In this document: in pieces, positions 4,960 through 48,632 of the stretch
Position numbering within the stretch: position 1 is the first letter of the stretch
Layout of the letters: every line of letters begins with the position of its first letter
From: Phoronis australis
Taxonomy: Eukaryota > Animalia > Phoronida
Length of the DNA: 64,000 nt
Assembly: GCA_002633005.1 (NCBI GenBank)
Contig: NMRA01000353.1
Location: forward strand, 257,625-321,624
Direction of reading: 5' to 3'
Position numbers and translations under genes: made by a program
Notes under the pieces: generated by a model
Database searches by the model: none
Seen by the model: only the letters and a program-made list of their open reading frames with translations
Told to the model about the DNA's origin: nothing

Positions 4960-7270
4960 ACAAATTTTCATGCTGTCACCCAGTCAAAGTAAGTCTGTCG
5001 CTTCCTTATGGACATGAAGAAGCATCGCGTTGTTCAATCTCCCCTGTGTCATGGACAACCTCAGATATGACTCTAAGCGGATGAGTGACGAAAAGACTCT
5101 TTCATCTGTGGCTCTGGGATTTTTAGGTGCAATCTTACCAAAGTCACAACCTCACTTAGCATATTCGTGGCGACCGACAACTCTTGTCTAATGCTCACCA
5201 AAGTCCAAATACTAGTTAGTTTTCTCAATTTTCCAAACTGTGGATTAGCTTTTGCCATATCAACAAGATCAGGAGAAGATCGATCTGGTGACTTAACTTT
5301 CTCAGATCAACATCTGTTTCTGATCACATCAGGTAATAATCTTTTGTCGTCTCCTGACTAAGCTGCACGAAGAGATCAGTTCTTCAATGGCTTTCGTGTT
5401 ACTGAACCTCTCTAGGTAGAACCGCTTATCCATTCCTCCCATTACCTTGTCGAATAATTTCAGTACATCTGGTGAGAATATCCTTTGAGAGAAAAAACAG
5501 GTGACGAGTAGATAACCCTTCTTCAAATCTGTTTAGTGCTCGTAGGTATCTTGGCAGCACAGGTTCGTTGGTGAGATCTCTTACCTTCACACACAAAAAT
5601 CGCCGTAAAAGGAATCGAACTCTCCTTCCTTTCTTAGCTTCAGGAGGTGATGTTGTATCAACAGCTTCGCCAGTAAAACTTCTTGAACGGAGAAGTCCTT
5701 GCCTTGAATTATAGCGGACATTTACTGTGTCGAACTAAACTGCATATCCAAGTCGAATACTAAAATGTGTGAACATAGGCGAATTTAGTGGGGCAGCCCC
5801 CCCCCCTTGGCTGCCGCAAAAAATAAAACAGCAAAAAACGGAAATTCACATGCGGCTGACGGGGGTGGAGGGGGCAGACCCGATTGCAAGTGTCCGGCTC
5901 AGACGACCCACGCAATCGTTTTCCCGTTTTTTTTTTTAGTCCTCCGTTAGTCTTTAGTAGAAAGGTCTAACAATTCAGTAATTCGAGCCCCCCTATCTTT
6001 CAGGCTCGGTGCGCGCATGCAATAGTGCTTTGCGCAATTGCCCGAGACAAAACGTTGCACCCCCTTATGATATCCTAGAACCGCCGCTGGTGAACAATGG
6101 TTCCACCTGAGCTAGCACACCTCGAGCTTGCTTTTTGTCCATACTCATCGTGTTGTTCATTGTTGAATTGTTCCACAGTGCGTTGAAGTGCTTCATAGTT
6201 TTCTACCACGGCTTTAATAGTCCCTCCCGGGCAGTCCATCTGGTAGGGCACCAAGGTTTGATGTTCCCGTCACTATGAACTTTCTCCTTGCAGAGGCAGA
6301 AGAGAGGCGACCAGTTTATAAACTGAGATATTGCTTAAAATGTTAAGAGCATATCTCAAAGATTTGCTTTTGCGTGTCGCATCTTGCTACATAAGATTTA
6401 AGCAATGCACGAAACAAAACGAGAAGGTCCAACGGTGTAGCAACCCCATTCAGTCCCCGACCATATGTTGCTTGCTCCATCGTATGCCTGTCCACGACAA
6501 AGAGCTAAAGGCAACAAAAAGCGTAGCAACACGTCCTGAATAGCTGCTGCAATGGTGTCTGCGTGAGTCGATGGCACGTTCATCAATGTGAGGAGATTTT
6601 CATGAATTTCCAAGTTGTCGTCGACATGTCTTACGCAAAAGGGACAGCTGCTCCAGATTTGAAATGTCTCTCACTCCATCTGCAAAAATAACAAACTATT
6701 TACCATTACGAATGTTGCTCAATAGCTGCCGCAACAGGAATTGTCCCATCAGTTTTATGTGTTCGTTGTCTGTATCTGGCGACAAATAATTATCTCCCTC
6801 CAACCATGGCAGCAGATCTGATGGGTCTTCATTCTGAAGCTTCAATAAATGAAGGAAATTGCTTTCTTCCAGCTTGTGATCACGAATAGCTAGACTTTGA
6901 GGCAATAAAAATTTCAGACTTGACAACTGTTTCAGGAGCATGCATTTGTATAGTGCTTGATCTTTTTTTCGGACATCAAAACGGAACCGTGCTCAATGAA
7001 TGCTTATTCCGTTTTCTTGCTAAATGTTAACGGGTTTTGTCTAAGTGCTTTTCTACATGGAAATCAGTACACAGCAATTGTGATCACACAACGGTTCAAA
7101 AAGGGATGCAGTGGGGCACAAGGGAGCCATGACCGCACCTACTCAATTCAAAGAAGTATTTCAGCGCGCGTCTACATTGGCTTCTTAATTTGTTTCCGCC
7201 GTTTGGGAAGAAATTTCGCTTGCGCAGTCAGATCGAATGACGATTACCCGCCGAAATCGCAAAGACAAAT
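4960..7270 (-). pseudogene. Degenerate hAT transposase (ZMYM1/DUF4371-like with hATC dimerization region)
   Basis: Fragments: ESNFLHLLKL..YLSPDTDNEHIKLMG, LCRGQAYDGASN, and MLSEVVTLVRL..ESF followed by a frameshifted hATC-like segment. Multiple stops and frameshifts. Confidence 0.75.
5774..6089. mobile_element. MITE with CATAGGCG..CGCCGCTG termini and 5-bp TSD GTGAA (hAT5-like)
   Basis: TSD at 5769-5773 and 6090-6094. Ends are shared with 42955-43925. Confidence 0.8.
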
Positions 7271-7521
7271 CGTATGAAACAAACTTAAAAATAATAATAC
7301 ATATCTGCATTAATGTTTGTAATTAATTAAATAACAAAAATACAAAGTGGGAAATAATCGCTTCCCACATTTAGCCTCGTCGTCATTTCTGACTATGCCA
7401 TCGTGACTCTGTAGTGAAACTGACAAGCATGATGATGCTGTACTTATTTCATCTCTCGGAGAATTGCTGTAACTCTCGTTTTCTTTAGATTTTTTACTAT
7501 GGAATCAACATAATCGACTAT

Positions 7522-7894
7522 TGGAGAGTATGGTACTGGCCAGTTGAAGTTGGATGCAGGGGATTTGTTGGGGAGTCAGTATGGAGGGCATTTCGTGCCA
7601 GGGTGACAGGAAAGGAAAGGAAGAAGGCAGCGAGCGAGCGGAGAGGGCGTCACAGTGGATATGGAAAAAGAGGAACGAACAGTGGTGCAAGAAGTCTAGA
7701 GGACGTGGGCAGGCTCCTGATGCTTCATCAGTGAAGTACTAGAAGAGACGAGACGAGCCATACAGTCCTGGACCGAGCCTGATCAACTCGGTTGGCGCAC
7801 CTCCAAAGGTCATTGTGGACAGCGCCGAAACGGCTGAGGATGAAGACTATCCACCTGAAGACAGGACTGACGCCAATGACATCAGAGCGTTTAA
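7522..7894 (+). repeat. Direct-repeat copy of the HERO 3' end (matches 11388-11776) abutting the 5' end of the element
   Basis: High identity from tggagagtatggtactggcc to gacatcagagcgtttaa, with a few small indels. Confidence 0.95.
7763..7869 (+). ncRNA. Candidate structured RNA / hammerhead-like ribozyme in HERO 3' end (second copy 11645-11751)
   Basis: Perfect 8-bp closing helix CAGTCCTG/CAGGACTG, hairpin ACCGAG/CTCGGT and helix GGCG/CGCC. CTGAAGA and GAAA boxes are flanked by complementary stem I and stem III strands (see findings). Confidence 0.45.
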
Positions 7895-10800
7895 TTTCTT
7901 TATGGGGACAGTGAGTGCTAGGAAGGACTGGCTGACGACTGGGAACAGCACAGTGACAACCTGGAGAGACAGGAGGCAGCTGGGAGAGACCAGCATCTCA
8001 GGATGTGAAGGCTTGGTAGGCCGAAGCAAATCTCCCGCGAGGGGGAACCTGTTCATGATCGCTATAGGCAGATACTTTAAGAAATAGCCCCAGGGCCGCA
8101 CGAGAGTGGGGGAGGATGAGCGACCCAACAGACAGAATTAGACGGAATTGACACAGGACAAAACACGGAAAACGAGACAGAACACGGATACAGCTCCAAT
8201 AGTGACACGTGGATCAAGTCTGAGCTCAACGGCGTCAACACCAGGGAGGAGACAAAAGAGAAGGACTGTTAGACTGAACACACAACCTACTTGTGAACAA
8301 AGGGCGTTGAACAACCCAATTATCTGTATGTGCGGGAAAGTTTGCAAGAACCATAGGGGGTTGCGGATTCACCAGGGCAAAATGGGCTGCCGCGCAGAAC
8401 CGACAATGTCACAACGCACAGAGAAATCTGGTCAGACGGAGGAGGAGGTGGTTCAGGATGCAAACCACAGCGACCACAGCCTCCATATGACAGAGGAAGG
8501 CGACGGCGGGAGCAGAGAAAATGCAGCATCTGAAGGTAGAACAGCAGAAGTTGAGGAGAATAGAAAACAAGAAGAAAGGAGGAGAAGAGTTAAATGGCCA
8601 CCTAGCACCAGTACAAGAGCGTGGCAAGAATTCGAAGAAGACGTGAGCACCGTGATTAACACCACATCAGCAGGGGATGTTGATAAGAAGTTGACAGGTG
8701 TGACGAAATTTATCTACACAATGGGAGCAGGCCGCTTTGGATTAAAAGAAAACAGAACGCATTCATTGGGTCAAGGCAATGAAAACAGTAGCGAGACAGA
8801 GATCACGAAGATTAGGCAAGATTTGCGTAGGCTGAGCAGAAGATATCGTATAGCACAGGAGAATAAAAAGGAGGGCTTAGCTGAGCTGAGACGGGTGCAA
8901 AGAGACAGACTGAAGACCCTGCGAAGAGCCGAGAGATCACGGCGGCATCGGAAAGAAAGGGCCAGGAAACGGACACAATTTACAGCAAATCCGTACCAGT
9001 TCGTGGCAAAACTACTCTGGAAAAAGAACTCAGGCAGTTTGGAGTGTGAGAAAGAAGAAGTGGGAAAGTTTTTTGAAGGAGACTTACAGTGACAGCAAGA
9101 GGAATGAGGACCTCGGAGAATTTGCTTCATTGATTAACCCGAACGAACCGACTGTAGAATTGCACATGAGCCAACCAAGATTACATGAGGTTATGCAGAT
9201 AATAAAGAAGGCAAGATCATCGTCAGCACCAGGACCAGACGGGGTGCCATATAAGGTGTACAAGAGCTGTCCAAGATTAGCCAAGATTCTGTGGAAGCTG
9301 CTTAGAGTTGCGTGGAGAAGATGTAGGTTAGCTGAAAGTTTTCACCACGCAGAAGGATATTTCATTCCAAAGCAAGACAAGGCGAAAGGTCTGCACGAGT
9401 TCAGGACAATATCTTTGCTGAATGTTGAAGGAAAGAACTTTCTGGCGACGGTGGTGAGGAGAATGACAGAGTTCATGATGGCGAACAAGTATATCGACAT
9501 AACAGTGCAAAAAGGAGGCGTTTCAGGGTCTCAGGATGTATCAAGCATACAAGTGTGGTTACCCAGGTCATCGAGGAGGCTAAGGAAAGGAAGGGGAATC
9601 TGGATGTACTGTGGCTTGATCTGGAGAATGCATATGGTTCAATACCACAAAGGTGGTCATGTTGACATTAGACCGGTACCATGTACCAGAGGCGGTAAAA
9701 GGAACGTTACAGGGCTATTCTGACAACATCAAGATGAGGTTCTCTGTGGGTAACTATGTTACAGCGTGTCAAAGATTGGAGGTGGGGATAATAACAGGAT
9801 GTACAGTGTCGGTGATACTGTTCGCAGCAGCGATGAACCTACTTGTGAAGTCAGTAGGAGCGGAAAAGCAGAGGACCACTGTTGGAGTCAGGGGTCAGAC
9901 AACCACCGACGAGAGCATTTATGGATGACGTGACTGTGACTACCAAGTCTTACACAGAAGGGAAGTGGGCACTGGAAGACCTAGAGAGGATAATTGCATG
10001 GGCACGTATGAAGTTTAAATCGGCAAAGTCAAGGAGTTTACTGCTTAAGGACAGCAAGGTGGCAAATGAGAGATTCAGGCTAAGCGACGACGTAATACCA
10101 ACAGGGAAGGAAAAACCAGTGAAGAGTCTGCCGGGAAAATGGTTCGACAGTACTCTCAAAAATGTTGTCAGTGTGGCTGCAATCAAAGGCCAAGTAGAAG
10201 ACTGGATGTCAGCAGTGGATAAATTTGGATTGCCAGGCAAGTTTAAAAGCATGGATTTACCAGCATGGAGTGCTTCCTAGGGCACTGTGGCCGCTATTGG
10301 TGTACAATGTTCCAACGTCAACAGCAGAGACAGTGGAGCATCTAGTGAGTTCCTTTCTACGTAGGTGGTTGGGTGTACCAAGGAGTTTTAGCAGTGTAGG
10401 ATTATACAGCACTGGGTCCAAGCTGCAGTTACCCATCACATAGCTGGTGGAGGAGTTTAAAGTTGGGAAGGTGCGTCAAGTGTTAACTCTGAGGGACAGT
10501 GTCGACGAGAAAGTGCGAGGAGCCAGAGTCAGGGTCGATGTAGTAAGAAAGTGGCTTGCCTCACAGGCACTCAAGCAGGCAGAGGAAAGACTCAGGCACG
10601 AGGACATTGTAGGCACAGTTGCAGTGGGCAGACAAGGACTTGGTTTGTTTCCACAGGCACGTTGGGGAGAAGCGAGTCCTAAGGAGAGACGTAGCATGGG
10701 GCAGCAGCAAGTGAGAAGCATGTAAGAAGAAACAAGAAGAGCCAGAGCAGCAGACATGAGGCAGTAAGGCAGTTGAATGAATTGTCAGGGAGCTAGACAG

Positions 10801-11776
10801 AGGAGTTTGAAGAGGCAAGAGATCTGGACAATGCAGGGGAGCAGACTGAGGTTTTTGCTGAGGCCTGTGTATGATGTTTTGCCCAGCCCAACCAATTTGC
10901 GTGTGTGGGGTTAGTGGAAGACCCGACTTGTGTATTGTGTAAGAAACAAGCAAACCTGGAACACGTGCTGTCATCATGCTCATCAGCGTTATCAGACGGG
11001 CGATATACTTGGAGGCATGACCAGGTGCTGGAGGTGATCGCGGAGAGCCTCGAGAGGGAACGCAAGAAGGAACGAAAAGTGCTGAAGGGGCCTCAGTTTG
11101 TTACTTTTGTGCTGGCGGGTACGTCAACTCGGGGACATACAGGAGGAGAATGTGTACTGAACACGGCAAAAGACTGGAAAATGAACTTCGATCTGTACCG
11201 AAGGATGACCTTCCCAAGTGAGACAGCGGAGACAAGTCTGAGGCCATACATCGTGATGTGGTCACCGGCAACGAAGCAGGTAATATTGCTGGAGCTGACA
11301 GTGCCATGGGAAGAGCGGATAGAAGAAGCACATGAAACGAAGAAAGAAAAATATCAATAGTTGTGCGAGGAATGTCGAAGTAGGGGGTGGAGAGTATGGT
11401 ACTGGCCAGTTGAAGTTGGATGCTAGGGATTTGTTGGGCAGTCAGTATGGAGGGCATTTCGTGCATCAGAGGTGACAAGAAAGGAAAGGAAGAAGGCCAT
11501 CGGTGTTCTAAGCGAGCGAGCGGAGAGGGCGTCACAGTGGATATGGAAGAAGAGGAACGAACAGTGGTGCAAGAAGACTAGGGGAAGTGGGCAGGCTCCT
11601 GATGCTGCATCAGTGAAGTTGTACGAGAGACGAGACGAGCCATACAGTCCTGGACCGAGCCTGATCAACTCGGTTGGCGCACCTCCAAAGGTCAATGTGG
11701 GCAGCGCCGAAACGGCTGAGGATGGAGACTATCCACCTGAAGACAGGACTGACGCCAATGACATCAGAGCGTTTAA
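7895..11776 (+). mobile_element. HERO-like non-LTR retrotransposon (restriction-like endonuclease type), near full length, degenerate
   Basis: Frameshifted or stop-interrupted single ORF, about 8148-11600. Motifs: N-terminal CxCGKxCxNxRGLxIHxxxMxC finger; RT motifs SAPGPDG, RTISLLNVEGK, GIITGC, AFMDD, MKFKSAKSRSL; CCHC knuckle CVLC..HVLSSC; RYTWRHDQVL; LRP(Y)IV..LLELTVPWE endonuclease. No poly(A) tail or TSD seen. Confidence 0.85.
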
Positions 11777-13805
11777 AGGTAACTCAAAGAGTTAATTCGG
11801 CTATGGGTGCCTACTGGCGGACTGGGTAGAAGTAAGCAATAGACTACCTGGGCTACAACAAGTAACTAAGCATTAACTTACCCCAATTGATTTCAATAAA
11901 GTTGTAATACTTTATGCAAATTAATTAGGATACGTGTGCAAGCCACACCAGTGTAAGCGCTGTCAGACATCCCGTTAGCATAACGTTCTGAGCTTCACCG
12001 TGGATGTTGGCGATGATTTCAGTCGATGACGCACGTTGAATTTCAGCGACAATTCACCAAAACCATGCTTCAAACCATCATGCAACACTTCTTAGAAGAA
12101 CTGTTCAATTTTCAACTTTATTTCAAAACAAAGTTTGTGTGTCCAAACTTTTAACAACTATTTATTAACTGATTGATACCTATTACCACCCGGAACATTG
12201 AGGGGGGCAAACCTATTTTCGCCCCCACATTTTGATGGGGGGGGGGGTGCAGGGAGCGTCGCTCGCCCCTCAGCCCCCTTGTATTACGCCTATGTTATAT
12301 AACTTCTTGTATCTTGAAATGCCTAACCGTGGACCGTCTTAGTGGACGGTATGCAAGATATTTTGCTTGTGTCCCGTGTCTGAAACCAAAACCAAAAGAT
12401 AGACGATACTCATGAATAACCCCAAACCGCTGAAAGCTCGTGATTAGTACCTTACGGACTAATATGATAGCCCAAGATGGATGACTTCATGCTATAAGGC
12501 ATACACATCTTAATGAAGACAGACGCAAATGAGCTTGCTCATCGTTCTATTGAACTTGAAGAATAGATAAATGCGCGAACGCTGGCAGAAAACATCCGTC
12601 ACCAAGAGTGGCAGATTACGTGCCTTGAAAAAGGAGAGCTATCATCTCAAAAGGGTATTATTTTCAAACACTGACCGCATTCAAATACTTTATGCATCAT
12701 TGCTCTGGAAAACTATGTGTGTATGTTTTAAAATAAGCAACTCTTGCTGGAGGACTACAACAACAGGACTTTTAGTTAGTGATTTTTATGAAAAAATCAA
12801 ACGTGTAAAACGAAAACCAAATAATTTAGAAAACTGTAACATAGATTTTGAGATTTCATCTTGAACAATTACATCAAATGAAATTCGGTGAGGTTATTGA
12901 TGCCGTTGGTTTGCCATGCCTGTATCATTCTTTTTTGGTAAATTCTACTAAAATCCATGGCCACGTGACCCAACCAACCGGTAGATTGGTGTACATGCAA
13001 TAATCACATTCTAAAAGATTTTTACTTTCAGAGAACATTTACTTTTATTACTGTGCTACATTTTATAGTGTTGTAGATAGTTGTGAGAAGCGGCACACAT
13101 GCTCTTATCTGCGATTACCTCAGTGTAAGTTACACTGACAATAAAGATTGTCATTTGGAAGGAAATCTCGTAATGTAATGTAAAATAGGTAACAGGCAAT
13201 GATGGATGCGAAATGTTAAAAATCCCAGCTCCTGCAACTTGCAGTACTATAGTTCCAACCGTGCGGAGCTGCTTGGCTCCAGCTTGCTGTGGGATTGATG
13301 ACTGGTCAGGCCTCGAACTTGCGTCCACCTTGTCAGTCCTCGATCTGCCGACGTCCAGCACAGACTATAGAGTCATGGCCCAGGACCATATGTCAGGCAA
13401 CTTAAAACTGATCCCTCCGTGTCTCTTCTAAGAGGGGTCCCTGGTTTTCACCCAAATAGCCCCTCTGACACCCGCTCAAAACCAGAAATTCTCTGATGTG
13501 TCCACACAGTTCACGTCCGTTGGTATCTCACTGCTACCCAAACAATGCGGAGTTATCAACTCATTAAGGTAAAAATTTTAAACATAATCGTGTTTGACAA
13601 CTTCAAAAGTTGTGTATTTGAAGCGCACTTATTTAACATTCAAGATAACTCGTAACTAAGTTGTTTTTCGATTTCGTTGACCTACGCACACAAATGGGCT
13701 CACGTGACTATCACGTGGTTAAACACTAATGCATTAAGCGAGTCCTCGAGGACACACAACACGTCAGAAGCTCGTGACGGAAAACTGATTTGGAGCACTC
13801 AAAAT

Positions 13806-24600: not shown

Positions 24601-27600
24601 GTCTTTCCCATATTTGGTTTGAGCCCAGAAAATTTTGAAATCAATAAGCACTTTTAAAGGCTAATTTGAGCCCTCTAGACACAGTACTGTGTCATCATGT
24701 CTTCGTTCTATCCATGCAGGTTTTCGAAAATAGTGATACAAATCGGCGCAGGAAACATGAAAGATAGCATGGAATTAGTAAGTAAAATGTCTTTTGTAAT
24801 ATGTGATTTTTGCTTCAGTTATTCCAATCCCGACTTTAACATGCTTTAATAACATGATTATTTTTGCAAACGGGGTCTCTAGTTTGACTTAAAGAGACGT
24901 GAACCACACTTCTGTGTTTTTAGATTCAAGTAATTAGAAGGAATGTACTATGAGTCGCGGATAACCTTTATGGCATTGAATACGAAAATAGAAGCAAGCT
25001 CTACCGTAAAGCATGTGTAAAACTATGTGAGCTGCTTGAGTGCGATGGTGAAGAATGGACACGGTGATCATAATCCGTGTTTATCATATCCCAGTTATGT
25101 AATTATTAATTATCATACCCCAGTTATGACCCGAACAGAGGCCTGGTCTTTATATCTAGTGACCCAAGTTTTGCCAGTTCAATTGTTAAAAGTATTTTTT
25201 TTATGTTCGGCTTATATAATGCATCGACTACATCCCATCGATTGACTACATCCCATCGATTGACCACATCCCATCGATTGACCACATCCCATCTATTGAC
25301 TACATCCCATCTATTGACTAAGTCCCATCTATTGACTAAGTCCCATCTATTGACCACATCCCATCGACTGACTACATCCCATCGACTGACTACATCCCAT
25401 CTATTGACCACATCCCATCGATTGACCACATCCCATCTATTGACCACATCCCATCTATTGACCACATCCCATCTATTGACCACATCCCATCTATTGACCA
25501 CATCCCATCTATTGACCACATCCCATCTATTGACCACATCCCATCTATTGACCACATCCCATCTATTGACTACATCCCATCGATTGACTACATCCTTGAT
25601 TTACCAACAAAGAACCACGTGTCCGAGTCACTGTTAACCAGGCTAATGGTCTTAGAGCTGGACGAGAGACTAAACTATGCTAGTTTCCAGCACAACTGGC
25701 GCAGACATTGGTATATAGATCAGATATGCAACTCGCACGATCTATGACAGCACTCCTCACTAGTTCTCGCCCATCTTAACTCGATTTTAGTGGCAGGTGT
25801 TCAGTAATAGATCCTTCTTTTACTCGTTAAAGGCGCAGCACGCCCAGGCTCTAGGCGCAGATGCTATCTCATGTGTGGCTCCTTCATATTACCGACCGGA
25901 ATCAGAAGGTACTTGCAAAGTTAATTCTATTATAGATTAAATACTAGGGAGTCTGCATACTTAGCAGAAGGTCTCGGATTGGAGTCACCGTCGGGGCAAA
26001 AATCTTTTCTGACGTACATATGTTCATTAGGTCACTTGAAGTGACCAACCGGTGGCGTGCGGGCCAGACTTAAAAATGTTTGAGATCTATATTTCCTCGC
26101 CAGTTCAATGCTAACATATTCAATTCAAGTTTTGTTTTTATGACATGACATGTTGACGAAAGTGATTACGTTTGAACTTGGCTTAATAAGAACAGACATT
26201 TGACGCCATTTTATTTGTTGATGTAATTTTTGTGTTTTGTGTATTGTTGTCGATGCCATTTGGTGGTTCAAGGATTTCGTCACTTAAAGTGGCCACTGAC
26301 AAATGTTCCACCCAAAATTGCGCACTTCTGATTAAGATCACTTATAATTACCCACCGTGACAAGCCGGCTCCTAGACTACCCGGTCCCACAGCGATCTAA
26401 TGAAAAGTTAGTTCTTTCAAAAAATCCCAAAATCTTTTCCATTTTCACTAAGAAACAACTTCATTACAGCATATGGCCTAATCAAAAGTTTTGTCATGCC
26501 AAAGACGCGTTTATAGCCGTTTCAAAAGTTTATTCAATAAAATGCGACTATTTCAGAACAGCTGGTAGACTACATGCAGAACGTTGCTTCGTGTGCACCG
26601 ACTACGCCATTCTACCTGTATGACATCGATTTTATGACCAATATTAAGCGTGAGTGCTATTTCGGCTAGGTAACCGTCATCAGTGCTAATTGGCTACAAT
26701 TTGAAAGTTTTTAGACGTAATACCTATCACTGAGCATTGCGTACGCACCTATTATTATCAGGCCCCTTTGCTATTATTTCCATATATCAGACACTACCAA
26801 GCCACTGAATAATGTGTTACCATCAGACACTACCAAGCCATTGCATAATGTGTTACCCTCAGACACTACCAAGCCATTGAATAATGTGTTACCCTCAGAC
26901 ACTACCAAGCCATTGAATAATGTGTTACCCTCAGACACTACCAAGCCATTGAATAATGTGTTACCATCAGACACTACCAAGCCATTGAATAATGTGTTAC
27001 CCTCAGACACTGCCCAGCCACTGAATAATGTGTTACCCTCAGACACTACCAAGCCATTGAATAATGTGTTACCTTCAGACACTACCAAGAGATTGAATAA
27101 TGTGTTACCCTCAGACACTACCAAGAGATTGGATAATGTGTTACCCTCAGACACTGCCCAGCCATTGAATAATGTGTTACCATCAGGCACTACCAAGCCT
27201 CTGAATAATGTGTTACCCTCAGACACTGCCCAGCCATTAAATAATGTGTTACCATCAGACACTACCAAGCCTCTGAATAATGTGTTACCCTGAGACACTG
27301 CCCAGCCACTGAATAATGTGTTACCATCAGACACTGCCCAGCCACTGAATCTGATGGGGTCCAATCCGTCGTCAGTTTCATCTCACCTACACAATATCGT
27401 CACTGAGAGCGACACTTTATTTTTGTGCAAAACCCTAGAAAGTGGCCAAATTTAGCCAATTTTGGAACATCATGTCTCAGAAATGGGTGATGGATTCATG
27501 TGAAACGTTCAGACACAAAATGCACTGTTCTCCAACAGGCTTTAGGAATTTCCAAATTTTTCCACTTTTGCATGAGAGGCTATCAGTAATAGGAACTTTA

Positions 27601-44198: not shown

Positions 44199-45141
44199 TG
44201 TTTTGGAACGCGCCTCCTGTCGGCGTGAGTTAGGTTTATACGCGCAAGCCGTGACTTCACTATTCACTAGCGGCGCCTGGAGTGTTACCAAGTCTTACTT
44301 CCCGAAAGTACGTCGTCTGCTGTTCATACTTATCGGAAGCGACTTAAACGTACAAATTCCAATTTGTAATATTTTATTTGAAAGGGATTTCCCAACTTTC
44401 AACCATTGGGAATGACTGAATGTTATGACGTCCGTTTTATTACTTTAAACAGTACACACCATGGATTTTTGCACATTTTGAATTACCGGTGGCCACAGAA
44501 TAAATGTATGACGTAAAATTTAGCTAAACCCATGTTTATTTTGTGTAATTAGCTCGAAATTTTTATTTTTCTTTCAATTTTGCCAATTTTCACATTTCCC
44601 GCCATGTGACGTCATGGGTTGAACGCAAGAGATCAGTGACTAGCATTGAACAATGGCGGAGAGCAGTGAATTTGAAAGCGACAACGATTATGAGCAAGAA
44701 TTGAATGAATACTATGAAGAAACGTACGGGAATGGTAGCCAGGATGAGGGAATGGGGTTGCACGAAAGCGAAAACAAGTTTGATGTGCTTCCGGCTGCGT
44801 ACTTTTCTACTTTGAGCCTTACGAACTGGATCCGCCCGCGAGAGAAGCGGCTTCGGGCTCGGCGAGTCAACCCAGTCATCCAACAGACGATCCTGAATTA
44901 AGAGCTGACGTTTCTGAATGATAAATATTGTCCTTTATTGAACCAGGCCTTCATCGTAACATCTCCTGTGACTGGAGTCGAAACACGAGTCCTCAAAGTG
45001 GGCAGAACACAGAGTGGCCCCGGACAGAATCGCTTGGTTCACGATGAGGTCCCACACTCTTGTTCGGCGCACGAAGCGATGCCACTTCTGCGCAACTTTG
45101 GTGTCCTTCGGAACACCGAGACGGTCTCCGCCTGGCTGCTG

Positions 45142-48038
45142 TTAACTGCAGAGGGAAATTGCACTGATTTATCATCCATGTTCTTAAACATCCCCAAAAC
45201 TTCTGAACAAGTGAACATTCCCAATACAAATGTAGAATTGTTTCTTCATGTTGCTCACAGAAAGAACATAAAGACGATTCACTAACACCTATTTTCTTTA
45301 AATAAGAGTTTGTACCAATAATTCTGTGGTTGATGCGGAATTGAAACCATCTGAGTCTGACATCAGAAGTACAATGATAAATTACAGAATGAATTTTTTT
45401 CCAAGATTGAGTATCATCGCATAAGTTAATTTCCCTCTCCCACTTCAATTCTGCGACAGGTTTTACATATAATTTAGAAATGAATACTTCATAGATTTTC
45501 CCAGTCCCTTTATTTTCCGAGGAGATTCGAAAAATATGTTCTGGAAAAAGTGGAGTGACAATAGTACTCTTGTCTCTTAGATGATTCCAAGAACGAAGTA
45601 TTGAACTTCGAATTCCATAAAAATGAGTAATACAAGGACAAAATTGAAAACGTGTACAAAAGGTATGATAATCATAAATATATCCCTTATCAGGGTCAAT
45701 TAAATCGTATACGTACCGTATACCCTTTTGAAACCACTCGTTCCAAAAAATTGGATTACTGTCTATACAAATTTTGGGGTTATACCACAAAGGTTGGTAC
45801 AAAGGATCCTCTATCTCACAAAGATTGATAAATTCGTATAACATATAAAAAATATCCTTCCAAAAAATATTCTTAGGACGGTTAGATACTTCAAGGAAAA
45901 AAACAAGAACCTAACTGAAAAGAGTTATTTTTTATATTAGGAATAATTTCACATAAAATATTTATCCAAGGAGAAGTATTGTTATAATAATTTTTGAAGA
46001 ATCTTCGAATCCAAGTCAGTTTAATAGCTTTGACAAATGACGCAATATGAACCATATTCCCACCTCCAACTTCAGATTTCTGCACCATGGTTTTTCTAGT
46101 GATTCTATCAGAAGATGTACCCCATATAAAATTAAAGAATAGTTTTTCAATGTCCTTAAAAAAGTAGCACTTGGAAGAGGAAGTGTGTAAAAGAGGTGAA
46201 TCAGTTTTGGTAATAAGAAAGATTTGACAACCGTTATCTTACCAAAGGTAGACAAATTTCTTTTTGACCAATTTCCAATGCCTTTTCTAACCTCATTTAA
46301 TTTTACATCGTAGTTTAAGGGAATCATGTCCTGTAAGTTGACAGAGAAGGTAATTCCAAGAGATTTGAACTGGGAACTTTCCCATTTTAAATCTTTTTCA
46401 CAACAAAGCCTATCACCACAACATATCTTAGAACCAATCCATATACAAACAGTTTTATCGATATTGGGTGTCAAACCAGAATACTTAGCAAACTGATCAA
46501 GAAGGTTGAGTGAAGATTTTAAAGAGGTTTCTGAACCATCTAGAAAGAGGACCGTGTCGTCTGCATATTGCATTAATTTATACTCTAAAGAGCCTACTTT
46601 TATCCCTTTAACATTCTCGCATTGCCTCAACATAGATGCCATAATTTCGGCACACAACAAAACAATGAGGTGAAAGGGGATCCCCTTGTCTGCAACCTCG
46701 GCAAATGTTAAAGTAGTTGGACGTAAAGCCATACTGAATGACCGAAAGTTGGACACTTTCATTGAGTATAATAATATCGTCACCAAAATTGAAATAGTGT
46801 AGAACTTTCTTAAGAAATCTCCAGGACACAGAATCAAAGGCTTTTTCAAAATCAATTAATACCAGAAGTCCGGGAATATCCTTAACTTGAGTATATTGTA
46901 AGATGTCATAAATCACTCTGGTGTTCTCTCCCATAAAGCGACCTGGGAGAAACCCAGTTTGATTAGGATGAATTAACTTATTTAAAACAGATTTTATCCT
47001 TTGTGCAATACATGCTGATAATAGTTTATAACTTGAATTTAGTAAGGAGATTGGTCTCCAATTTTTAATGTATTCANNNNNNNNNNNNNNNNNNNNNNNN
47101 NNNNNNNNNNNNNNNNNNNNNNNNNNNNNNNNNNNNNNNNNNNNNNNNNNNNNNNNNNNNNNNNNNNNNNNNNNNNNNNNNNNNNNNNNNNNNNNNNNNN
47201 NNNNNNNNNNNNNNNNNNNNNNNNNNNNNNNNNNNNNNNNNNNNNNNNNNNNNNNNNNNNNNNNNNNNNNNNCACGTAATAAGGATTTGTTAAGTCGCCA
47301 TAGACCTTTACCTCTAACAAATTTAGAGACCAGAATAGTAGTCACGACACAATGATGGTCGGTTCTATAACCTGGGGACGTTTCAATATTTTCTATCCAA
47401 GAGGAAAATTCGTCGGACACTAGAAAAAAGTCCAGACGGGCTTGCTTACAAGGGTTAATTCTGAACCTAGTATAGCTTGTTGTATTTGGGTTACGTAACC
47501 GCCACGGGTCGATCAAATTTAACTGCGACATCAGACTGATAACTTGTTTTCTTGCAGCCGGACTGTTTTGGTGTTTGTATCCTAAACAGTCAAGATTGAA
47601 ATCCTGAACCAGATTCCAGTCGCCGCAAATGATTATGAACTCTGAATTGTAGTCATTGACTACTTGAAGCAGGGTTCTAAAAAATTCAGGGTCATCCTTC
47701 TTGGGACCATAAATATTAGCTAACGTAATTGAGACTCGATTTTCAATAAGTAATTCGATGACAACAAGGTTTCCTTGATCATCAAGATGGATTTTACCAA
47801 CTTCACATTCAAAGTTATTATTTAGCAATATGCAGACACCTCTCGATTCTCTTGTTCCAGGGCTCATGAAAACATCATATCCCCACTGGGCTCTAATAAC
47901 AGAAATTTCTGATTCAATAAAATGAGTTTCTTGCAAGCAATAGATATTACAACACTTCCGTCTCAAAAATTCAAAGACATCCTTTCTCTTAATTGTGTCC
48001 CTTAGCCCTCTGCAGTTTAAAGATAAGATACTAACCAT
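45142..48038 (-). pseudogene. L1/Tx1 ORF2p (APE endonuclease, RT, zinc finger)
   Basis: SLNCRGL, LQETH, NIYGP, GDWN, RLDFFL, TDH; WRPISLLN, DFEKAFDSV, GCRQGDPLSP, QYADDT; RWFQFRINHRI..CSFC..ETILHLYWEC. Confidence 0.9.
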
Positions 48039-48632
48039 GTTCCGACAAAAGACATGACAAATCGGGTCTATCAATTAAAATACTAAGTGTGATGTATATA
48101 GAACGTACACAAGTTGGTGAATCAACAAAAATCTCGCCCAGAAATATGTAAAAACAAAAAACAAAAAGGGAGTGGCTAAAATGTACTTCACCACCTCCAT
48201 GATACACACTGGACATCAGCTAAGGCAATACCCGCATTCATATACCTGTGTTGATATGCAAATCAGTTTTAGACATTATGAAAGACTCAACTGAATAGAA
48301 CACTGCCCACATCAGTCAACTTTACATGCAGATGTAATGGGCCGATGCCTAAAAACAAGCAAAAAAGGACTGGCAGTGTTCTATCTGTTACAAAGCCAAG
48401 TCAATAGTTATCATACCGTAGAAAAGAAACGAAAAACATACATACCGTCAGCAAAAAACTGTGTAAGCATATCATATGAGCAATAAAGCAAACAATATTT
48501 TGCAGTCTTTAATTAATGAAATTTTGGAAACACTATCTACACTCACACGCAGCCACTGGACTTGTTTAACCTGACGACTCTCGCAAGTACGCAGGAATGT
48601 CGTGAAAATTATCCACAGAATACGACTTACGA

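Follow-up and report, generated by a model that had tools for sequence, protein, structure and literature searches.

How might a retrotransposon come to carry, near the end of each of two head-to-tail repeats, what looks like a hammerhead ribozyme with its strands in reversed order, and what could such an RNA be doing there? The question is raised by one decayed element of Phoronis australis, in a 64,000-nt stretch of DNA that we call the window and number from its first letter. A first-pass annotation had proposed that the 3′ end of a HERO-type element there holds a hammerhead-like core in reversed order. That proposal has held up: the core is conserved and covaries across homologues of the element, although its wiring is not quite the one first drawn.

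The Element and Its Two Copies of the Motif

The host of the motif is a decayed HERO/Zebulon-type non-LTR retrotransposon, and both copies of the motif lie within its 3′ UTR. All of the element's features are on the plus strand. The insertion opens with a 5′-truncated partial copy (7522..7894), recognized from direct repeats D4 and D19 and from its translation, which holds the end of the ORF, a stop codon near 7740-7742 and then 3′ UTR; it is 91% identical to 11430-11776 and extends 292 nt 5′ of the predicted cut (7814). A full-length copy (7895 to ~11784) abuts it directly. This copy starts with a conserved 5′ UTR (7895..8080; nhmmer, alignment and folds), in which short hairpins spaced by TGAC are followed by a longer stem-loop, and continues with a broken ORF (8325..11624) that is interrupted by several stops and frameshifts. 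Its translation, which includes an RVT_1 piece, gives an N-terminal zinc finger and then the HERO-type layout, a single ORF with reverse transcriptase (RT) followed by a CCHC finger and a restriction-like endonuclease (RLE). The first copy of the motif occupies 7763..7869, and the second (11645..11751) lies 3882 nt downstream. What remains is a 3′ tail (11752..11784) that runs to the free 3′ end, 80-88 nt beyond the predicted cut; neither a poly(A) nor a target-site duplication was seen there.

In pieces, the window ORF is 40-64% identical to the Tetraodon protein AAN12398.1, which forms one 90% cluster with BAC82599.1; we take these two to be Zebulon and HEROTn, of the HERO clade. The Tetraodon element likewise has a single ORF with RT and C-terminal RLE and a partial tandem layout, reportedly called a “partial tandem array” by Bouneau et al. 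in 2003. The best solved relatives of the Tetraodon protein are R2 proteins.

Elsewhere, the window holds an unrelated LINE on the minus strand (44993-48074), with AP endonuclease, RT and zf-RVT domains across three frames, and tandem arrays with 18-nt and 36-nt units (25151-25672 and 26679-27458).

A Family of Homologous Loci

The C-terminal part of the window ORF drew 112 protein matches; those that are named come from fish, molluscs and lancelets. An alignment of 26 C-terminal proteins served as the query for further relatives. Metagenome contigs gave 79 loci, drawn from the best 80 of 506, and prokaryote assemblies gave 7 more; the 82 loci that we assessed are the 79 together with the 3 prokaryote-assembly loci that reach the protein C-terminus. 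Their proteins are 26-72% identical to the query. A strict core is present at 54 loci and a degenerate or contig-cut one at 10, always in the same place and on the same strand; a further 10 contigs end too early, and 8 have no motif by the search, one of which (L049) holds a degenerate copy visible by eye. In a tree without named R2, R4, NeSL or CRE references, the Tetraodon proteins nest among the motif-bearing loci (SH-aLRT of the shared fork, 82).

A four-part descriptor of the core was run over 757,470 bases, made up of both strands of the window plus all 86 loci. It matched sense-strand 3′ UTRs and nothing else, and it found 0 matches in reversed and complement-only controls. Chance matching is thus far from sufficient to account for the motif. 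Rfam gave nothing relevant in window 7000-12500 and, across 20 loci, two unrelated weak matches only (E ≤ 5 in both searches). The viral collection that we searched yielded no relative. Loci L080-L086 are pieces of HERO-like proteins found in GTDB prokaryote assemblies; most lie on short contigs, and they are probably eukaryotic contamination; the motif is absent from the three that reach the C-terminus (L082, L084 and L085), a weak core call in L085 having been put aside as chance.

For counting, we used 45 sequences, namely window copy 1 and 44 loci; 9 near-duplicate loci were dropped, as was L009, whose contig stops just past the box.

The Hammerhead Core

Which letters make up the core? 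In copy 1, the cleavage block (7808..7819) holds the 5′ strand of stem III (7808-7813), the unpaired H17 (7814) and the 5′ strand of stem I (7815-7819), with the cut predicted between 7814 and 7815. The GAAA block (7822..7835) consists of the 3′ strand of stem II (7822-7826), GAAA (7827-7830) and the 3′ strand of stem III (7830-7835), and the third block (7850..7869) of the 3′ strand of stem I (7850-7854), the CUGAAGA box (7855-7861) and a strand (7862-7869) that starts immediately after A9 and belongs to a helix that we call P1. The first-pass annotation had placed CTGAAGA, GAAA and T7814 at these same positions, and the pairings that it drew were all found again: GTGGACAG with CTATCCAC at 7/8, GGTCAT with ACGGCT at 5/6, CAGTCCTG with CAGGACTG at 8/8, GGCG with CGCC at 4/4 and ACCGAG with CTCGGT at 6/6. 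Some of its boundaries have moved. Stem I was correctly located, but it is 5 bp long (7815-7819/7850-7854) rather than 8, since G7822 belongs to stem II; and stem II, rightly recognized from GGCG/CGCC, is a 5-bp helix (7794-7798/7822-7826) that opens with the canonical pair G10.1-C11.1 (7794 and 7826).

The CUGANGA box varies at N7 alone, where all four letters occur among the 45 copies. Because this box and GAAA were both required by the strict search, their constancy is in effect the figure of 54 loci in 82. Constancy of the core letters had been suggested as a check, and it was found throughout the 45 copies for the two (required) boxes and for U16.1, which pairs with A15.1 in 45 of 45. A C directly follows GAAA in 43 of 45, the pair 10.1-11.1 is G-C in 37 and G-U in 4 of the 45, and the unpaired H17 is U, C or A in all copies except one, which has G (44/45). 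The cleavage triplet reads GUU in 19, GUC in 14, GUA in 8 and something else in 4, which makes it GUH in 41 of 45.

Covariation across aligned homologous 3′ ends, the other check suggested, was found for stems I, II and III as well as for P1. In a MAFFT alignment built from sequence only, pairing holds in 94% of the cells of stem II, 87% of those of stem III and 89% of those of stem I. A single pair shows as many as 24 double changes, and 0 of 500 shuffles reach the covariation score. This count is the unbiased one; in the anchored counts, the registers of H17 and of P1, P2 and stem II were picked by best pairing and are inflated to that extent. On the protein tree, the pairs that vary in stems I, II and III as well as in P1 (its first 8 pairs) change together on 73-100% of the branches where they could; in 1250 column pairs that are not partners, the mean is 39% and the 99th percentile 78%. 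The outer helices P1, P2 and P4 (described below) are just 40-53% paired in the MAFFT alignment because length variation misregisters them, and co-change of P2 on the tree is weak. Energy folding of the window copies, which excludes pseudoknots, yields P1, P2 and stem II.

From this conservation we are all but certain that the fold is a conserved hammerhead core, and it is very probable that the RNA would cleave itself at a specific site. Two other identifications fell away. A second CTGAGGA (7834-7840) was rejected as the box because of its overlap with both stem III and the kink-turn and because most homologues lack it, and HDV-like and twister folds, which we also weighed, were dropped once the hammerhead boxes proved constant.

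How the Core Is Wired

The strands follow one another as P1, P2, stem II, P4, kink-turn, stem III, GUH, stem I, stem II′, GAAA, stem III′, P4′, stem I′, CUGANGA and P1′, and in blocks the order is S-G-C, the order of Eckert's type SGC. The linker from the 5′ strand of stem I to the 3′ strand of stem II is 1-8 nt long. The classical type I/II/III order, C-G-S with a nested three-way junction, is absent here and Rfam has no relevant match, and standard descriptors do miss the motif, as had been foreseen.

Where, then, is stem II? The textbook partner of the strand before GAAA is the strand after CUGANGA, and those two do not pair: the first pair forms in 4 of 45 copies (the shuffle mean is 5.4), and co-change of such a direct stem II, 0.20-0.58, falls inside the null. 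The true 5′ strand of stem II lies 20-24 nt upstream of the cut. That is, the box adjoins stem I directly, and it reaches stem II solely through a junction of two extra helices, P1 and P2. By its pairing pattern, the hammerhead backbone is broken between A9 and G10.1, and these helices occupy the break.

The strand after A9 closes the whole domain as P1, whose 5′ strand in copy 1 is 7763..7770 and pairs at 8/8 with 7862-7869. Scored against partners swapped between copies, P1 pairs far better with its own (17.5 vs. 8.9), and 33 of 44 copies exceed the 95th percentile of the control. The P2 hairpin (7771..7793, with the palindrome TGATCA in its loop at 7780-7785) then bridges P1 to the 5′ strand of stem II (7794..7798), and the P1/P2/stem II junction has zero spacer in 33 of the 35 copies with a strong P1.

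Two further parts had been overlooked when the core was first recognized. One is P4, a helix that links the distal ends of stems II and I (7801..7805 with 7841-7845 in copy 1, mismatched at A7843, where most family copies have G). It is seen in homologues and in the swap control, with a mean score of 15.2 for own partners vs. 9.6 for swapped ones and 29 of 45 copies at or above the control's 95th percentile. It makes the right connections for the tertiary contact of stem I with stem II, and we assign it that role putatively. The other is the kink-turn. A kink-turn consists of a canonical helix, a 3-nt bulge, tandem G-A and A-G pairs and a second helix, and the pattern is found between P4 and stem III, with a 3-nt bulge, in 32 of 45 copies; other bulge sizes give 1, 0, 0 and 0 (bulges of 1, 2, 4 and 5) and 9 (bulge of 0), and the strict form is missing in 13 of 45. 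In copy 1, the strand 7806..7807 (AA here and GA in most family copies) faces the bulge at 7836-7838 and the GA at 7839-7840. The kinked geometry of this pattern and any binding of L7Ae are putative. At two loci (L034, 1687-1770, and L075, 3808-3888), the distance from GAAA to the box is 21-22 nt instead of the usual 26-29, and the kink-turn is missing.

Dimer assembly of the core, which had been considered at the outset, is unnecessary: every helix pairs and covaries within one copy. The sole pointer to a contact between two RNAs is the P2 loop, where a self-complementary hexamer occurs in 30 of 45 copies (6.4 in shuffles) and is absent from the other 15. Seven different hexamers are used, implying at least 8 changes on the tree, and in 30 of 30 hairpin folds they are mostly unpaired. 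Whether these palindromes make a kissing-loop contact seems to us an even question.

Decay of the Window Copies

Both copies in the window are decayed, and the family tells us how. In same-species contigs, most copies have G at 7806, 7812 and 7843, where copy 1 has A; with G at these three positions, the kink-turn, the 16.2-15.2 pairing and P4, respectively, are whole again. At 7812, reads with G from other copies account for a depth of 30.7 of 63, 36.8 of 53 and 28.4 of 40.9 in three DNA runs of one sample, which fits the earlier suggestion that the single mismatch in stem III arose by CpG decay. Copy 1 is probably impaired. Copy 2 (H17 = 11696) had been suspected of being dead, and we likewise predict that it is inactive: it has G11701, and a private A11695 at U16.1 breaks the pair with A15.1, where all other same-species copies (63 of 63) have T. 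In neither window copy is the kink-turn strict (AA in both).

RNA reads from three same-species raw runs (19, 11 and 4, plus 16 in a further comparison) showed no pile-up of ends; they fall on both strands, are less than 95% alike and are too few to show a cut.

Layout of the Insertions

How are the tails arranged relative to the rest of the element? The hairpin-array 5′ UTR is conserved, with 26 nhmmer matches and 3 weak ones put aside, and 12 of the 54 strict loci pass from tail directly into such a 5′ UTR. Counted from the other side, 8 of these 5′ UTRs stand ahead of their own ORF. What precedes them is a tail of the same element in 6, a degenerate copy in 1 and neither in 1; four of those six (L002, L008, L010 and L032) may be collapsed-repeat contigs. 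The 5′ UTRs without a preceding tail are at L025, L028 and L049. The last two (at 2582 and 2597) are related and follow the same non-element DNA with no ribozyme tail, and they are exceptions to the head-to-tail layout. At L025 (minus strand, ~1616-1870), a second element lies in inverted orientation; its upstream piece begins within the 3′ cleavage product, only ~13 nt ahead of the CUGANGA box, and is followed by tail and 5′ UTR.

In the 5′ UTR itself, short hairpins, three to five in number and purine-rich in their loops, are spaced by TGAC or TGGC; a longer stem-loop and a GCTAC-like motif follow ahead of the ORF (e.g., window 7895-8080; L005, 2290-2480; L012, 3184-3370; and L017, 1978-2160). 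Such a structure could serve for internal ribosome entry or as a binding site that sets the point of priming.

The tail-to-5′ UTR junction is identical between copies of one family (L012 and L041, and the window family), and other same-species copies span the same junction as the window. Upstream partial copies cross the cut by 292 nt in the window and by at least 250 nt in L014. Across copies, the insertion continues for 80-97 nt beyond the predicted cut before its free 3′ end; in five comparisons (L002, L008, L045, L073 and L074), that end is at H17+91 to +97, a few bases short of the first 5′ UTR hairpin. These ends, and those of the window family, run into the linker that junction copies continue into the 5′ UTR. 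No target-site duplication was seen at the insertions examined.

A Possible Route Through Circular RNA

What might the motif do for its element? We propose that the fold cuts RNA after the GUH triplet (7814 in the window) and that a head-to-tail read-through transcript cut twice in this way would free a unit-length RNA, which would likely close into a circle and serve as the template. Cut at both window copies, such an RNA would run from 7815 to 11696, or 3882 nt. We infer that P1 and P2 would stack and, as a four-way junction, bulge out at the A9/G10.1 step without disturbing the core, that the kink-turn would fold P4 back to tie stems I and II together, and that the palindromic P2 loop could form a kissing dimer. 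The cut ends of one unit RNA would be held by P1, stem II, stem III and P4 and then joined, by the ribozyme or by a host ligase. The element's protein would prime internally, just ahead of the first 5′ UTR hairpin, and reverse transcription through more than one round of the circle would rebuild the upstream ribozyme.

Two sets of observations fit such a route. Insertions end ~80-97 nt past the cut, and their starts vary and include starts upstream of it, which would imply a continuous, internally primed template, most simply a circle. As for the fold, it has four helices across the cut, with median duplex energies of −13.2, −7.1, −6.4 and −9.7 kcal/mol, so that the ends of a unit RNA could rebuild the whole ribozyme and would be placed for ligation. 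There is precedent for the circle in the model proposed for Penelope elements, and for cleavage in the reversed-order cores that cleave in vitro (PMC10085705). Other points count against it. The break at A9/G10.1 is without tested precedent in the literature that we searched, and template jumping would likewise produce partial tandems. The commonest triplet, in 19 of 45 copies, is GUU, a slower hammerhead triplet. On balance, we lean moderately toward a route through circular RNA. The fuller picture is more tentative, and we hold it at a little less than even: HERO elements would be LINEs that travel as circular RNA, a four-strand-wired, kink-turn-braced, kissing-loop-dimerizing hammerhead would cut and rejoin a coding RNA of 3.7-3.9 kb, and the uncapped circle would be translated via its hairpin-array 5′ UTR and copied by rolling-circle target-primed reverse transcription from an internal site.

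Could the ribozyme cut and the template nonetheless stay linear? The RT might jump between templates, whether paired cleavage products or RNAs dimerized by their palindromes, and so produce the partial tandems. R2 RT reportedly synthesizes across non-continuous templates, the four helices that bridge the cut could hold the products together without ligation, and the palindromic loop is there in 30 of 45 copies. Still, the shared junctions within families, together with the staggered free 3′ ends in the linker, fit internal priming on a continuous template better, and the window copies share four family-minority alleles (7806, 7812, 7841 and 7870), which weakly favors one template. We consider jumping on linear RNA unlikely, though it is a serious rival.

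We find it more doubtful again that the upstream ribozyme merely makes a 5′ end from host read-through, as HDV-like ribozymes do in R2, with the downstream copy mostly uncut and the linear RNA copied once. A single pass cannot yield upstream copies that begin 22-292 nt 5′ of the cut (L008, L010, L014 and the window), and daughters would lose the upstream ribozyme; such a scheme would, for its part, explain free 3′ ends beyond the downstream cut and sit well with a common slow site, GUU, and with the upstream copy of L002 (1-90), which begins at H17+2, a start that equals the contig end and may be chance.

Nor do we give much weight to a noncatalytic fold, a protein-binding or packaging structure for the element's RT that happens to retain hammerhead-like boxes. 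The break at A9/G10.1 would suit such a structure, as would the A16.2 that faces C15.2 in both window copies, which might mean that an impaired copy could be mobilized all the same; yet the shared A7812 sits at a CpG and may have decayed twice. The unpaired H17, GUH in 41 of 45, G-C or G-U at 10.1-11.1 in 41 of 45 and variation at N7 only match hammerhead chemistry exactly, and this reading is very improbable. As for a chance match in a decayed repeat, the mismatches in each window copy and the lack of an Rfam match might suggest it. It is scarcely credible: of the 82 loci, 54 carry a strict match and 10 a relaxed one, constant in place and strand, against 0 in controls, and the MAFFT covariation, tree co-change and descriptor controls had already refuted it.

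Relation to Known Ribozymes

How much of this is new? The reversed strand order, of which the first-pass annotation knew no description, is already in print: type SGC (HRIMA-1 and variants), CSG and GCS are the non-circularly permuted hammerheads of Eckert et al. 2023 (PMC10085705). Like type SGC, the HERO motif has the S-G-C order, the same core letters, a short linker from the 5′ strand of stem I to the 3′ strand of stem II and a Watson-Crick helix between the distal ends of these two stems; reversed-order cores with that same helix cleave in vitro, according to Eckert et al. In type SGC, stem II directly follows CUGANGA(U), as the descriptors demand, whereas in the HERO motif those strands pair in 4 of 45 copies, the 5′ strand of stem II lies upstream of the cut, P1 and P2 sit at the break and a kink-turn lies between P4 and stem III. 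The CUGANGA-stem II block was in fact assumed to be uninterruptible, with no insertion of more than 1-2 nt known there (PMC10085705), and the portion of Perreault 2011 available to us describes small core insertions only. Hosts differ as well: the HERO motif sits in animal-type LINEs, and type SGC came from metatranscriptomes and metagenomes, with no known genome save that of one bacterial GCS candidate in what we consulted of that paper.

The nearest functional parallel is with Penelope-like elements, for which Cervera and de la Peña 2014 (PMC4209133) proposed a cut, a circle and more-than-unit reverse transcription. There too, each flanking repeat of a partial head-to-tail retroelement carries one hammerhead, and one extra nucleotide is tolerated between positions 9 and 10.1. 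The Penelope ribozymes are minimal type I cores of classical order that need a dimer for stem III, in a GIY-YIG element (PMC4209133); the HERO core is complete in one copy, reversed in order and hosted by an RLE element. R2 and L1Tc with their HDV-like ribozymes, as well as retrozymes, likewise use self-cleaving RNA to free retroelement RNA from a longer transcript, but R2 and L1Tc do so with another class of ribozyme in a 5′ position, and retrozymes are noncoding and carry classical hammerheads (PMC6765202).

HERO goes unmentioned in the parts available to us of that 2019 review of retrotransposon ribozymes (PMC6765202), and those of a 2026 review of R2 draw no link between HERO and a ribozyme. 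In the literature that we searched, which lay outside subscription journals and Repbase, we found no description of a ribozyme in the HERO clade and no paper on a hammerhead with a kink-turn in a retrotransposon. Nor did we find the A9/G10.1 break with its added helices in print, although the supplement of Eckert et al. was mostly searched by terms and may hold a prior description. What is already known, then, is the reversed strand order; what we could not find described, and what appears to be new, is the split CUGANGA-stem II block, the added helices and the LINE host.

What the Motif Would Mean

The motif breaks a design rule stated for hammerheads, at least as it reads in the parts of the literature available to us, namely, that the CUGANGA-stem II block cannot be interrupted. 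A large natural family of ribozymes, in elements of the fish, mollusc and lancelet type, would have been invisible to descriptors and to Rfam, and a reversed-order hammerhead now has a clear host element, in animal-type genomic DNA. With its putative kink-turn and kissing loop, a small ribozyme would offer two natural points at which to regulate it. An old puzzle can now be put directly to the test, namely, why insertions of this clade form partial head-to-tail arrays and lack a poly(A) tail. And if the circle is true, an R2-family enzyme would prime internally on circular RNA, which would bear on the evolution of LINEs and on tools for RNA-templated gene insertion.
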